Virus record (IMG/VR): IMGVR_UViG_2939521961_000007
DNA length: 32,179 nucleotides
Direction: 5' to 3' (one strand)
Origin: a virus
Lineage: Duplodnaviria > Heunggongvirae > Uroviricota > Caudoviricetes
Shown here: positions 21,001 through 27,000 of the stretch, piece by piece
How positions within the stretch are numbered: the first letter of the stretch is position 1
Layout of the letters: each line of letters starts with the position of its first letter
Position numbers: made by a program

Positions 21001-24000
21001 GGGGATTGCTTACTGAGTTATTCCTTTATGGGTTTAATAACGGCCCTGAAGCTCTTCGCGATAGGATGCTCAGTATGCTTTCGGACTCAGGTGAAGCACA
21101 ATCGCAAGAGAGTATTCAGGACAAAATATCTCAATGTAAGTTTCCTGTTAGTTCAGGAAATTTCCAGTGCCCGCCAGAGTCTATTCAGTGTCCAATTACA
21201 CTAGAGAGACCCGAAGAAGGAGTGTTTGTCAAAAATTCAGATAGTTCGGCAGTATGCTGCTTATTTGATTTTGATGCATTTTCTCGTTTAGCTAGTGAAG
21301 GCTCATATCATCCACTGACCCGAGAACCAATAACGGCATCAATGATTATAAGTCCTGATAAATGTGTTTATGATCCTATCAAGGGAAACTTCATTATAAA
21401 AGATAGTTAAAATATTTTTCTCTGAGAGAGTATTGGCTGTCAGTAATTTGTAAAAAAACGCCGCAGACATCCAGAATATAAGAAGGTGTCTGTGGTTGGC
21501 AGGTTTCAGATGACTTGAAGGCGTCTTTATGTAAATGCATTTTTCTGTGGAGATGTTGTCGGAAAATATTGGATTAAAAACATAATCCAAGTCAAATAGT
21601 AAGTTTGTTTTTTTTGAGATTAGGTGTGTATTTAGAATTTTTATGATGTGTTTATTTTGTGGGGTATTTTAGAAAAAAATATATTAATCCTTATTAATAA
21701 TAGCTGCCATCCATTTCAGCTATTATTTTAAAATAAACAAGTTAAAGCTTAGACTCTTGTTTCTTGGATTATATCAAAGATATCAACATGATTTGATGGA
21801 TTATGATGTGGTAAGCCATTGCTTTCGATATCGATTACCACATCCTCTGGATTTGGATGCCGCTGTCCAACAGGGATACCTTCTTCCATTGCGCGTATAT
21901 CAGCACCTGTGGCATGTTCAATATCTGCTTTATTGGGGAAAATAGCTCCTTCTCTTGCGTGCCACCATATACGAGGATAGTCAGTGAATCTAGCTACTTC
22001 AAACTCGGCCTTGTTTAAATCGGCAGCCCCCAGTGTCGCACCAGCCCACCATAAAATAGTGTCTGGCTTTAATCCAGGGGTATTATACTGTATGGCATGC
22101 CCTGCTGCTTGCCCAACCATTGCACCGATATGAGGACTTAACATTGGATCTGTACTAGCAAATCTGGATACTGCAAATCCCCCTAAAGCACCAAGCGCAT
22201 TTGCGGCAGCATTGGTAAGAACGGCATATTTAGTATTAGGGTTATCTAAATCCCACTTGAAATGTGCGCCAAACTCCAGCCCTAGAGTTGCCTGTAATGG
22301 AGATGCACCATATTTAAAATCTGCTTCTCCCGGTCTGATAACCCACTCCTCCGTGTAATTTGCTTTCGGCCCATCAGGAGTAAGTGGTGTTTCTCCAACA
22401 AGCTTCCATCCATTTTCAGTTTTGACTATAGGAAGTTCTACACCATGATTACGAACCACTTGAGCTGTTAATCCAAACCATGGTATTGGGCCTTTTGGCT
22501 CGGTGGTTACCGTCGAAGTAGTGGCTGATGTTCCAGTCGATGCAATAGTCGACACTGCAGTGGTTGATATATTACTGTTGCTTAATGCATTTTTTAACGG
22601 GCCAGGAAGGTCTTTAAAATTAAAACCTATTTCATCATGCAGAGGGAATATCTGTAAAAAATAATTACCTGATGTAGGATGAATATCTGGTTTTACAATG
22701 TTTAGCTGGACACCATATTTACCAGAGATGCCTGAAACGGAACTAGGTATCTCTAATGCCATTTGGGTAACATTGAATAAACCAAACATATCCAATGTTT
22801 TTTTCCTATGGATCCTTCTTCAAGGTGAGGAGCTATATATTCGTCTAGCCCTGAGAGCAGACCTTTATCTTTTATCAAGCTCAGTAGAGCTGTTGTTTCA
22901 CCGCATTCCGGTGCATGTTGCTGTATATCATCTGGAATATTAACAACAAATCCAGCTTGGCATCCTAGAGGTAATTCGGATTGCGGTATTTGTGTAGAGG
23001 GTATTTGTTCTGTTTGATGATGTTGATTGTTTTGTGAGGTGATTCCAGATTGTATGGTCGGTTGAATGTTCATAATAAATCCTTATTACATGTTTATATC
23101 CATTAATAATATCAATCCATTGATATTATTAGTGTCACATATCCGATGTGGACAGCTTTAATATATAACTGTTTGAATGCTTGATTGATGTGACTTAGAT
23201 CTCAAAATTAAGTTGTTAAATTTACCAGTTTATCGCTTGAACACTTAAAATAAATTATAAATGTTTCTGTTATTGTTTTTATAGTTTAAATTATTGTTGG
23301 TTGTATAAGCTGATTACATTTTTACTCTAAGTGTTATAAATATTTTATACTGATATTAGTCTTATTATATATTTTTTTAATGAAAATGAGCATAAAACTA
23401 AGACATATAATGCTTGGCAGCTTTATGCTCTTCTGATTGGCTGTATGTTTGATGACAAAAAATTAGCGCAAGAGGACAAAAAATCACCTTGCGCTAATGC
23501 TCTGTCTCAGGTCACTAATCACATCTAACTCATTGATTAATTGTGACTCTAAATGTAGTGTTTTGTCGCGTTTTGCAGTCTATCATTTAATCAATTGTAT
23601 AAATAACATAATGATTTTTAATGTGTTTTTGTGATTTTATCCTCCTTCTGACATGGAAGTTGTTCGTTCAAAATCTTATTAAATATCAAGTTGTTAAATC
23701 TGGTAAGTCATTATTGGTCAAAATAAAATCATTATCCGATTTCAATTTTGTCCCACTCCCGCCCGCGACTGTCCCTATAATGCGCCGCCATTGAATCAGA
23801 TTTATGTCCAAGAAGACGTTGTGCAAACTTGTAGCCAATCTGGTTCCGATATAGCCTCGCGGACAGACTACGTAGTTCATGAAATGTCGGTGGGTCTCCA
23901 TCAAACGAGATCCCGGATGCATTTCGCGCCTTTGTTAAATACCGTGATACTGTGGCTGGAGAAAGTGGTTCGTGATAGGTTGATGCGATTATTGTTTCAC

Positions 24001-27000
24001 TGCTGCTGGCCTCCCTGCATTTCTGTAGTGTATCAACCAGTGAGATGTCGAGTGCGTCAATGGTTAGAGCCAGCGGAATGGCAATTTTGGCTCCTGTTTT
24101 ACTCTGTCCAATGTGAAGATGACCATCGTTTATGTCTGACCACTTCATTCTGCACAAATCGCCCACTCTCTGCCCTGTAACGACAGCTAAATCCATTGAC
24201 AGCCTCAGCCAGATGGGGAGGTGCTCAGCAGCATGGTAAATAGCGACATACTCATTAGCTGTCAGCCTTGAGCGCCTTACTTCTGACTTTGCTGCACGGG
24301 TTGTTGTTACTGGATTCGTTGCCACATGCCCCTCGGCTATTGCCCCTCGAAAAACGTCAACAAGGGTTGACCTGATTACTCTTGCGGAAACCGCTTTACC
24401 TTCTGCGACGTAGGTGTTTAGCATTGCTGCCACCTCTTTCGTTGATATGTCAGTGAGCGGTTTGTCCGGCAATTTTCTTCGAATTGCCCTGATTTTGCTG
24501 GCGTAGTCGAGTAATGTTTTCGGCTTGCTCCCCCTCTAGCTGAGGATTGTTTCATATCGATCAAGCCACGTATGAAGAGTGATTGAGTCAGTGCCTTTAA
24601 CCCTGTCCAGCAATGATTCGTGCCCACTTTCGCTGAAAAGCTCAATGTTGGTGTGAATGCTTCTGAAATTGCTACTCTTCTGTCTCTTCCCAGCCCGAAC
24701 TCTTTTTTCGTCCTCGGGTCAGTGTGTAGTAAGACCGCTGCAAATCCTGCGTGCTGACGGGAAGTGGGAAAATATTGGCGAAATGAAGTAACCCGATAGC
24801 TTCACAAAAACCGGAGTCCGGCTCCGGTTTTTGTTGTCATGTATGGGGGATGTCTGTTAGGAATAATTAGATAGGTTTATTTTGAAGGTTGAAATGTATG
24901 TTATCGCCCTCTTCTATAAATTTGGGATGTTCATGGAATTCTTTAACCAGAAACCTGACTTCGCCTGATAATCGTGTTTTATCCTCTGTAAGGGATGCTG
25001 CTGTTCACTCTGATAGCGGGACGCAAGTAACGGTTGGCAACAGAACATATCGTGTTGTGGTCACTGATAATAAGTTTTGCGTTACAAGAGAAAGTCATAG
25101 TGGTTGTTTTACTAATCTGTTGCACAGGTTGGGATGGCCTAAGGGAGAGATTAGCAGAAAAATTGAGGCTATGCTGAATACATCGCCAGTGAGCACGACT
25201 ATAGAAAGAGGCTCTGTTCATTCGAACAGACCTGATTTACCTCCAGTGGATTATGCGCAGCCGGAGTTACCTCCAGCGGATTATACTCAATCAGAGTTGC
25301 CGAGGGTTAGCAACAATAAATCACCCGTGCCAGGTAATGTTATTGGTAAAGGTGGTAATGCTGTCGTGTATGAAGATATGGAAGATACAACAAAAGTGTT
25401 GAAGATGTTTACTATATCTCAAAGCCATGAAGAGGTGACAAGCGAAGTTCGTTGTTTCAATCAGTATTATGGTTCCGGGAGTGCAGAGAAAATATATAAT
25501 GATAATGGAAATGTTATTGGTATTAGAATGAATAAAATAAATGGGGAATCTCTTTTGGATATTCCATCATTACCAGCACAAGCTGAACAGGCTATTTACG
25601 ATATGTTTGACAGACTGGAGAAAAAAGGAATTCTTTTTGTTGATACAACAGAAACAAATGTTTTATATGATCGTATGAGAAATGAATTTAATCCAATAGA
25701 TATATCATCTTATAATGTTTCTGATATTTCATGGAGTGAACATCAAGTCATGCAATCTTATCACGGAGGAAAGCTGGATCTTATTAGTGTAGTATTAAGT
25801 AAGATATAATATTTTTATCCAGATATATTAGTTGCAATAATATTTATGGATTTATTTGTTAAGGGGGTTTTGATATGTTACCAACAAGTGGTTCTTCAGC
25901 AAATCTTTATTCATGGATGTATGTATCAGGAAGAGGTAACCCTTCGACTCCGGAATCAGTAAGTGAGCTTAATCATAATCACTTTCTTTCTCCTGAATTA
26001 CAAGATAAACTTGATGTTATGGTCTCTATATATTCATGTGCCAGAAATAATAATGAGCTTGAGGAAATTTTTCAAGAGCTAAGTGCTTTTGTAAGTGGGC
26101 TGATGGATAAGAGAAATAGTGTATTTGAGGTGAGAAATGAAAATACTGATGAGGTTGTCGGAGCGCTGAGGGCGGGAATGACGATAGAGGACAGGGATAG
26201 TTATATCAGGGATCTTTTTTTTCTGCATTCATTGAAAGTAAAAATTGAGGAAAGTAGACAAGGCAAAGAAGATTCGAAATGTAAAGTTTATAATCTGCTA
26301 TGTCCGCATCACTCTTCAGAGCTATATGGTGATCTACGAGCAATGAAATGCCTCGTGGAAGGATGCAGTGATGATTTTAATCCTTTTGATATTATTAGGG
26401 TACCAGATCTTACTTACAACAAAGGATCTTTACAATGTGGATGATTAGAGGCCTGTGAGCCTGTTTAGGATTCTGTGTAAATGCCTTTTCTTAAAAGTGA
26501 CCGTCAAGACGGTCACCAAACTCGATAATAAAGCGGCTCATTGCCATTCGCCAGTCCCTTAACGGCATTGTCCATTTCTGTGACGCGGCCTGGATTGCCA
26601 GCCACACCACTTTTTTTACTGACTCGTCCGTCGGGAACACCTTGCGTTTCCTGATGGCATGCCGGATCACACTGTTCAGCGACTCGATGGCGTTCGTTGT
26701 GTAGATCACTTTGCGGATATCTGCCGGATAAGCGAAAAACGTCGCCAAGTTAGTCCAGTTTGACAGCTAGCACCGGCTTATCTGCGGATAGCGGCAGTCC
26801 CAGGCCGCAGCAAACGCTTCCAGTGCCTGCTGGCCTGCCTCTTCTGTGGGAGGCTAATCGCTTTCAGGTCGCGAGTGACGGCTTTGTATTCCTTCCATGA
26901 CACGAAGCGCATGCTGTTGCGCACCATATGCACGATGCATAACTGGATGCGGGCCTCCGGGAATTCTTTCAGGCCATACACACAGGCGATGAGGATATCG

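Follow-up and report, generated by a model that had tools for sequence, protein, structure and literature searches.

A decayed attP-int module, probably from a yfaT-integrating lambdoid phage, between two effector cassettes of an Escherichia coli ompW prophage

Introduction

How does a phage attachment site (attP) with its integrase gene come to lie among effector genes, in the middle of a prophage that has a different integrase of its own? The locus that raises this question is found in a stretch of 32,179 nucleotides of Caudoviricetes DNA (IMG/VR virus record IMGVR_UViG_2939521961_000007; the window in what follows), where a site resembling attP of phage lambda, followed by an integrase gene remnant (int'), sits between the effector gene nleA on one side and the effector genes nleH and nleF on the other. 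The window is a degraded lambdoid prophage of attaching-and-effacing Escherichia coli and a member of the PPompW family: the 1.6 kb around the site are 100% identical to O26:H11 strain 11368, to O103 and to some O157:H7 strains, and in O26 11368 the prophage is bounded by ompW on one side and by a 3' ompW' fragment, adjoining yciE, on the other. According to Nakamura et al. (2021; PMC8112680), the right end of PPompW is a seven-effector exchangeable effector locus, and the prophage is flanked by a 121-bp duplication of the ompW 3' end; we aligned the two duplication ends flanking the host prophage to each other. A first-pass annotation of the window had noticed the two arms of the site, had left the core between them unrecognised, and had suggested that the effector island is a collapsed tandem array of lambda-like elements. 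Here we identify the core and propose that the element is, in all likelihood, a non-functional sib-attP-int relic of a yfaT-targeting temperate phage of the lambda/HK022 family, located at the seam between the cargo regions of two phages within the ompW prophage.

Results

We found that positions 23458-23735 are colinear with the attP regions of both lambda and HK022, in the order sib/tI hairpin, P1, P2, core position and P'1-P'3, and that the colinear alignment to lambda extends into the 3' end of int (23458-23830). The P-arm side together with sib (23458-23644) is 78% identical to lambda attP over 164 nt (E=4e-29, shuffle z=10), and the P' arm (23660-23735) is 77% identical (E=1e-4, z=7.3), where the E-values were computed for a 5-Mb search space and the z-scores against shuffles. 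HK022 attP aligns to the site in a single piece of 285 nt (E=3.5e-51), and over attP and int together the nucleotide identity is 84% to HK022 and 68% to lambda. The order and spacing of the arms equal those of lambda, as expected of an attP of the lambda Int family: P1 (CAGGTCACTAAT; 23508-23519) and an inverted P2 (ATTGTGACTC; 23540-23549) lie on one side of the core, and P'1 (AAGTCATTAT), P'2 (TGGTCAAAAT) and P'3 (AAAATCATTAT; together 23705-23735) on the other, all assigned by alignment to lambda and HK022. The adjacent int reads toward the site, with P'3 overlapping its stop codon, as in lambda, and the sib/tI hairpin (TTAGCGCAAG...CTTGCGCTAA; 23463-23497, minus strand), a retroregulation and terminator element, lies beyond the P arm on its left. 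This hairpin is near-identical in lambda and HK022, and the homologous stretch is annotated as the sib site in HK022 record X51962; a generic terminator scan did not call it, its loop being longer than the scanner limit. The earlier observation that a P-arm homolog with an arm-type site is contiguous with a P'-arm homolog is borne out by these colinear alignments, with coordinates that agree to within ~15 nt.

The core that had gone unrecognised can now be identified as CTTCTGACATGGAAG (23645-23659). It occupies the position of the 15-bp lambda core and matches neither lambda nor HK022 there. The key to its identity is a small prophage in yfaT of O111 strain E2855 (NZ_AP018796.1), which carries nleG-nleA followed by a P arm 93% identical to that of the window; the nleA next to its right prophage junction (attR) is 92% identical to the window nleA at the amino-acid level. 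In this attR the P arm is followed by CTTCTGACATGGAAG and then by yfaT, so placed that homology to the window stops right after CTCCTTCTGACATGGAAG and the 3' part of yfaT continues. At the left prophage junction (attL), yfaT runs up to CTTATGACATGGAAG and is followed by the P' arm, an intact int of 356 aa, and xis. The uninterrupted yfaT of K-12 carries the corresponding bacterial site (attB), CTTATGACATGGAAGGACACC, and the string CTT(C/A)TGACATGGAAG is present in O111 attL, in O111 attR and in K-12 yfaT alike. The yfaT flank was matched up to exactly the attB point in nearly all of 5,426 complete genomes, and yfaT is a published prophage target (PMC3603311). Because the O111 E2855 prophage is split at this sequence and K-12 yfaT has the matching attB, we take CTTCTGACATGGAAG to be the core of a yfaT-specific attP, that is, the crossover sequence of yfaT-integrating phages. 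The window site equals the left half of O111 attR plus the right half of O111 attL and is therefore the unrecombined phage form. Specificity of the lambda or HK022 type was considered and ruled out, as the core matches neither; since it differs from that of HK022, the chromosomal target differs as well.

Next to the P' arm lies the int remnant (23732-24726, minus strand), a pseudogene of the lambda/HK022 Int family delimited by tblastn against lambda Int, DNA alignment, Pfam and RefSeq. It is 67% identical to residues 26-355 of lambda Int (tblastn, E=2e-144), so that the alignments to int and to both attP arms on which the first-pass annotation had staked its case are all significant. That annotation had also described the remnant as N-terminally truncated, frameshifted and carrying an amber codon, and each of these lesions can be placed: some 25 N-terminal codons are gone, with int homology ending at 24720-24726; the frame switches at ~24640-24660, with a 1-nt gap after 24658 relative to intact relatives; and a TAG on the minus strand at 24536-24538 stands where the O111 and HK022 int genes have GAG. 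No uninterrupted full-length frame is left, as would be needed for a functional gene. The conceptual translation nevertheless contains PF09003 (partial), PF02899, PF22022 and PF00589, corresponding to Arm-DNA-bind_1, SAM-like, central and catalytic domains, and it keeps the catalytic motifs TGQRVGDL, SKTGAKIAIP, FHELRSLSARLY, LLGHKSD and HYRD; arm-binding, core-binding and catalytic domains with the R-K-H-R-H-Y residues are thus all recognisable. Over its C-terminal 245 residues it shares 90% amino-acid identity with the intact O111 yfaT Int. The pseudogene itself is already known, being annotated in RefSeq at the identical O26 locus as a tyrosine recombinase that is frameshifted, has an internal stop and is N-terminally incomplete. 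In strain 2013C-4974, the remnant is annotated as frameshifted, without an internal stop.

The contiguity of P arm, core and P' arm had been read as the mark of a junction between tandem prophages. A contiguous attP is also normal in any lambdoid virion or circular genome, and contiguity is therefore not specific to tandem prophages. The parts found here are moreover not those of a junction of the host prophage. The internal core is of the yfaT type, as opposed to the ompW 3' duplication at the prophage flanks, and int', with 67% identity to lambda Int and 90% to the yfaT Int, belongs to another lineage than the resident integrase. The latter is an intact ompW-type enzyme of 376 aa (1-1131, minus strand; assigned by Pfam, and adjoining ompW in O26 11368) that is 36% identical to lambda Int, and beside its gene there are CTCTGCAAAAC repeats in place of lambda-type arm sites. 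The host prophage integrase is thus unrelated in specificity to the fossil, and a site-specific tandem at ompW was ruled out because core and integrase lineage are unlike those of the host prophage. The nleA-attP-int' block also occurs on plasmids (see below), and on all these counts the contiguous P-core-P' beside nleA is the native arrangement of the donor phage. Nor does the site have the structure of an attB carried within a prophage, as the core has a phage arm on either side, P and P'; a host-derived flank is found only in a second attachment-site fossil (27337-27404), where the site is an attR and not an attB. A junction that truly abuts an ompW-type integrase is present in O157:H7 TX 265-1, where an ompW' fragment is followed by an ompW-type int and xis. 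With ompW' directly before a second ompW-type int-xis, this locus does have a genuine tandem or nested junction in that strain. In the island of the same strain (extracted locus 12294-24173), int' abuts a short effector fragment and a remnant of an insertion sequence (IS) of the IS256 family, nleH-nleF are deleted and ISEc8 is inserted.

The site lies, as had been claimed, between two effector cassettes, and each of these opens with the 3' end of a tail-fibre gene. The first unit (unit A) consists of tfaC, nleG', nleA, sib, attP(yfaT) and int'. It is opened by the complete tail-fibre C-terminal gene tfaC (20454-20723, plus strand; RefSeq annotation of the identical O26 locus and direct repeats D2 and D3), continues with an nleG-like (DUF1076) effector pseudogene (20836-21410, plus strand; RefSeq annotation) and reaches the att site with nleA (21749-23073, minus strand; RefSeq and identity to O111 nleA). 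Here nleA is split into two overlapping open reading frames (ORFs; 22753-23073 and 21749-22795) and has therefore suffered a frameshift in this strain; intact copies are found in O157:H7 TX 265-1, in O111 E2855 and on plasmid pO55. The sib/P-arm DNA starts some 390 bp upstream of the nleA start codon. The second unit (unit B) consists of a tfaC fragment, nleH, nleF, the IS256 remnant, sib, an attR of lambda type and a host flank. It starts at 24720-24859 (plus strand; recognised from the direct repeats) with the last 72 nt of tfaC (24720-24791), a hairpin and an intergenic stretch, followed by the effector genes nleH1-2 and nleF (24898-26444, plus strand; RefSeq annotation of the identical O26 locus) and by the IS256-family transposase remnant (26491-27125, minus strand; RefSeq annotation), which separates nleF from the second att fossil. 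The third unit (unit C) contains espO, nleG, espM1, an IS630 remnant and a further nleG-family gene, and ends past the window at the attR of the ompW prophage. The stretches 20652-20790 and 24720-24859, each comprising the last 72 nt of the 270-nt tfaC and a GC-rich hairpin, are 92-94% identical and precede both cassettes; in these phages, effector cargo regions seem to share the tfaC 3' end with its hairpin as their left boundary.

The two units meet at a single joint (24720-24727), where int homology ends at about codon 25 and gives way to homology with the final 72 nt of the tail-fibre C-terminal gene. Microhomology at this joint amounts to at most ~1 nt, and we therefore regard it as illegitimate. 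Live prophages at ybhB, the site of lambda attB, show the unbroken counterpart of unit B: in EPEC (enteropathogenic E. coli) E2348/69 and in O111:H8 strain 8E an intact tfaC stands directly before nleH, and homology to the window begins exactly at 24720. In strain 2013C-4974 (extracted locus 3701-6060), an IS3-family element is inserted at the joint of int' and tail-fibre fragment.

The second att fossil (27126-27404), detected by a repeat search that found a second copy of sib and P arm at 27126-27267 (direct repeat D1), supplies a provenance for unit B. We aligned it to lambda and HK022 attP and to the K-12 lambda attB, and found an attR of lambda type (P-O-B') with host flank from the ybhB side, placed after nleH-nleF and the IS256 remnant: a sib hairpin (27141-27175), P1 (27186-27197), P2 (27218-27227) and a core, GCTTTTTATACTAA (27323-27336), which is the lambda core minus one T. 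The core is followed by TTTGAGCGAAAC..., in which the B' arm and the flank of the lambda attB toward ybhB continue for ~68 bp (27337-27404), with an 8-bp deletion. In O111:H8 8E, the nleH prophage at ybhB has a live attR, to which the fossil aligns end to end as far as ~27404. As unit B ends in an attR with ybhB flank, its donor prophage had integrated at the lambda attB, and the nleH-nleF unit would have been carried off from such a prophage together with attR and a little host DNA. An exact 26-mer search for the donor species of the ybhB-side flank gave 0 matches among GTDB species representatives. Units A and B thus each have a live counterpart integrated at the chromosomal site that the fossil core predicts, and in the island, complete tail-fibre-to-att cargo regions of phages with three integration specificities are stacked head to tail. 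The lambda-type attR fossil also occurs, unannotated, in O145:H28 PPompW_132418 of Nakamura et al. (LC567822.1, extracted locus 7935-9200). That prophage is a deletion derivative in which a fragment of lom runs directly into the interior of the IS256 remnant (near window position 26548), with loss of the first two units' tail-fibre genes, nleA, the attP-int' fossil, nleH and nleF.

We then examined how widely the relic is distributed. The fossil is present at an identity of at least 99% in 445 E. coli records, including O157:H7 (among them EDL933), O26, O103, O121, O111:H11 and O127:H6. The joint of int' and tail-fibre fragment is the same in all copies of at least 99% identity among the matches listed, which indicates that the fusion happened once and that the composite then spread horizontally; a single high-identity variant differs in its upstream sequence, and there an IS3 element has inserted at the joint. 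Between serotypes the copies are 99-100% identical, so conservation is uninformative about selection. An exact 20-mer spanning P-core-P' occurs in 12 IMG/VR contigs, and the three of these that were inspected have the same fossil, with a truncated ORF of 246 aa and then nleH. The INPHARED phage collection holds no full-length match above ~85% identity, and literature searches by locus tag (ECs1813, Z6022 and Z6023) returned nothing relevant. On pO55-type plasmids (n=14), a block of nleA-sib-P-core-P'-int' lies between IS elements (for example in pO55 of O55:H7 CB9615, NC_013942.1, extracted locus 2024-4692), its attP and int part 94% identical to the window. This block has a different int truncation, next to an IS21 remnant, two substitutions in the core, and a P arm with a ~7-fold tandem expansion of the 10-bp GGGTTTTTAT; it is independent of the block in the window.

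The remainder of the window is that of a reduced prophage. After the integrase gene it continues with early, Q and lysis genes and contains no morphogenesis genes. The antirepressor gene lies only ~50 nt from tfaC (19889-20454), and thus no part of the head and tail region is left; in O26 11368 an IS600, absent from the window, lies between antirepressor and tfaC, which fits the coordinate offset of 1,269 bp. The early region includes the adhesin gene paa (10758-11516; AcfC family, RefSeq annotation of the identical O26 locus), with the toxin gene hokD downstream. Near two nleG-family genes of unit C there is a 54-nt direct repeat (28287-28340 and 30933-30986; 80% identical). Just past the right end of the window, at ~29701-29721 of the extracted O26 locus, lies GTCATGCAGTTAAAGTGGCGG, a 21-bp sequence that Nakamura et al. 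(2021; PMC8112680) report as an attB within the prophage; in the O26 copy, it is found between the last effector gene and attR(ompW).

Discussion

The sequence itself shows what the site is, together with its core and its target, and that it is heterologous to the host prophage; it further shows where the joints lie and that both cargo units have live counterparts at the predicted sites. The order and mechanism of the fusion events we infer. We propose that a yfaT-type phage carried nleG-nleA in its cargo (b) region, between tail-fibre genes and attP, as is the order in every lambdoid virion or circular genome. A part of this donor genome, with the tail-fibre gene at one end, about codon 25 of int at the other, and nleA and attP in between, would then have been fused to the final 72 nt of a second phage's tail-fibre gene through one illegitimate (non-homologous) joint. 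That gene would have preceded the second phage's own cargo, nleH-nleF, which ended in a lambda-type attR and ybhB-side DNA. The composite would then have come to lie upstream of a third block (espO, nleG, espM1, nleG) that ends at the real attR of the ompW prophage, whose integration is the work of its own, unrelated integrase, and the relic int would have decayed through amber codon and frameshift after the fusion. The joint itself may be the product of one unequal, illegitimate crossover of two phage genomes or of a homologous co-integrate that later lost ~40 kb by deletion; both routes leave the same final sequence.

The second of these routes can be formulated as an explanation in its own right, in which a circular yfaT-type phage recombined, by homology of tail or tail-fibre genes, into a resident lambdoid prophage, so that its intact attP-int came to stand between two complete phage genomes, and a ~40-kb deletion from int codon 25 to the second tail-fibre gene collapsed the resulting array. 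We consider this possible but distinctly less probable than a fusion in one step. It differs from the preferred explanation in route only, needing the same end points and the same single joint, and it would be a 'collapsed array' of a non-site-specific kind. Homology for such a step exists, since the two units share 94% identity in their tail-fibre 3' ends, and these prophages are prone to deletion, as seen in the window without morphogenesis genes and in O145 and O157 variants with further IS-associated deletions. However, no uncollapsed intermediate was seen among the 5,426 complete genomes, of which sampled matches were inspected; two events are invoked where one unequal illegitimate crossover suffices; and the final sequence cannot tell the routes apart. 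By contrast, an array formed by site-specific integration, in which a tandem at the same bacterial site left attP between two prophages and a later deletion removed most of the second, is very improbable. It is true that a contiguous P-core-P' followed by int is the arrangement between site-specific tandem lysogens, that a deletion from int to tail fibre in the second copy would leave int' next to a tail-fibre 3' fragment and then a second cargo, as seen here, and that tandem and nested prophages are common at ompW (PMC8112680). But the core is of the yfaT type and not an ompW duplication, the lineage and arm repeats of int' differ from those of the host prophage, the contiguous nleA-attP-int' block is found on plasmids too, and the second cargo ends in an attR of lambda-attB type, which is a third specificity. 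Of the earlier suggestion of a collapsed array of lambda-like elements, the array therefore stands, and is strengthened by the stacked right ends and the second att fossil, whereas the site-specific tandem and the reading of P-core-P' as its junction do not.

Two further explanations concern the site itself. It might be a live secondary attachment site, like the attB sequences published within prophages, kept because yfaT-type phages dock there. In favour of this, none of the five arm-type sites is damaged, nor is the core, which on the P side is the same as in a live yfaT phage, and host-derived attB sequences that serve other phages have been described in PPompW (PMC8112680). Against this, both flanks are phage arms, which makes the site an attP and not an attB; we saw no sign of a high-identity copy split by a prophage, the attP query being covered to 80% or more in 463 genomes and matched at an identity of at least 99% in 422 records; and the serotype copies, 99-100% identical, are silent on selection. 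We judge this explanation to be highly unlikely, and the attP DNA is probably intact only because little time has elapsed. That the resemblance is due to chance, with generic AT-rich intergenic DNA lying beside an unrelated recombinase fragment, has a negligible probability in our estimate: it has the AT-richness of the region in its favour and nothing more, and the arms alone give E-values of 4e-29 to 3.5e-51, their order and spacing are colinear, and the int stop codon overlaps P'3 as it does in lambda.

We thus prefer the relic of a yfaT-targeting phage, and several observations weigh against it. No intact donor with this int above ~87% nucleotide identity was found among complete E. coli genomes, the best intact relatives being 85-87% identical. 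In the live O111 yfaT phages, int is 85-86% identical and the P arm 93%, so the true donor lineage is unsampled or mosaic. The exact P-core-P' 20-mer had 0 matches in GTDB species representatives. We found no ompW prophage of pre-fusion form, with an intact tail-fibre gene directly before nleH, this arrangement being seen only in the ybhB prophages, and no uncollapsed intermediate. Finally, the roles of the arm and core sites are presumed from their sequence conservation.

The relic serves as a provenance tag: the nleA cassette comes from a yfaT-integrating phage of the lambda/HK022 family, and the second fossil likewise marks nleH-nleF as coming from a prophage at the lambda attB beside ybhB. 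The seven-effector island of the ompW prophage in EPEC and in enterohaemorrhagic E. coli (EHEC) was, on this account, assembled by concatenating whole tail-fibre-to-att cargo regions, and not simply by insertion of single genes or IS shuffling alone. This bears on a question left open by Nakamura et al. (2021), namely how host-derived att sequences enter prophages, because the second fossil is a captured right prophage junction with host flank. Fossils of this kind can also confuse the calling of prophage boundaries and of tandem prophages. No new molecular mechanism is involved, since mosaic lambdoid prophages and exchangeable effector loci are already well known; the element is a real relic that records the origin of a cassette and not a new type of element. 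In the available text of the related literature, we found no mention of the yfaT-type attP or of the att-fossil provenance of both cassettes. It is conceivable, though we think it improbable, that the relic attP remains a competent recombination partner in strains with a live yfaT/HK022-family Int and Xis, either as a prophage-borne site for attP x attP docking by incoming phages, or for recombination with attB(yfaT), attL or attR that would produce megabase-scale ompW-yfaT inversions, and that, in the light of the second fossil too, islands grow by serial capture of whole cargo regions, each with an att 'barcode'. If so, captured cargo regions would keep this barcode as a readable record of cassette provenance across EHEC and EPEC.

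Among known systems, the yfaT prophage of O111 E2855 is alike in core, in target and in the cargo beside the P arm, and differs in that its attL and attR are recombined within yfaT and its int and xis are intact, whereas the window site is unrecombined, has a dead int and lies inside an ompW prophage. The closest characterised relative is HK022 (Shamshuipovirus HK022; X51962, AF069308), which has the same layout of sib, P1, P2 and P'1-P'3 and a near-identical P' arm; its core, CTTTAGGTGAATAAG, is wholly different from CTTCTGACATGGAAG, and only the window has an int pseudogene. The attP-int region of lambda (J02459) shows the same architecture and arm-type consensus, with the int stop inside P'3, but its core, GCTTTTTTATACTAA, is unrelated, and its target is the attB between ybhC and ybhB as opposed to yfaT. 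In bio-type capture by lambda (aberrant excision) and in docR-type capture, DNA to the right of an integrated lambdoid prophage leaves together with attR. The second fossil, with P arm, core, B', a short host flank and then foreign DNA, has the structure expected of such a capture; unlike the textbook cases, it keeps only ~68 bp of host DNA, joined to another phage's cargo. The PPompW locus described by Nakamura et al. (2021; PMC8112680) belongs to the same prophage family, with the seven-effector island and foreign att-related sequences inside it, and its available text does not mention yfaT or an integration-module remnant. The elements reported there are attB segments of host origin (from yecE, ykgJ/ecpE and ompW) that serve as targets for incoming phages; the window instead has a phage attP, accompanied by int', and a lambda-type attR that retains host flank.

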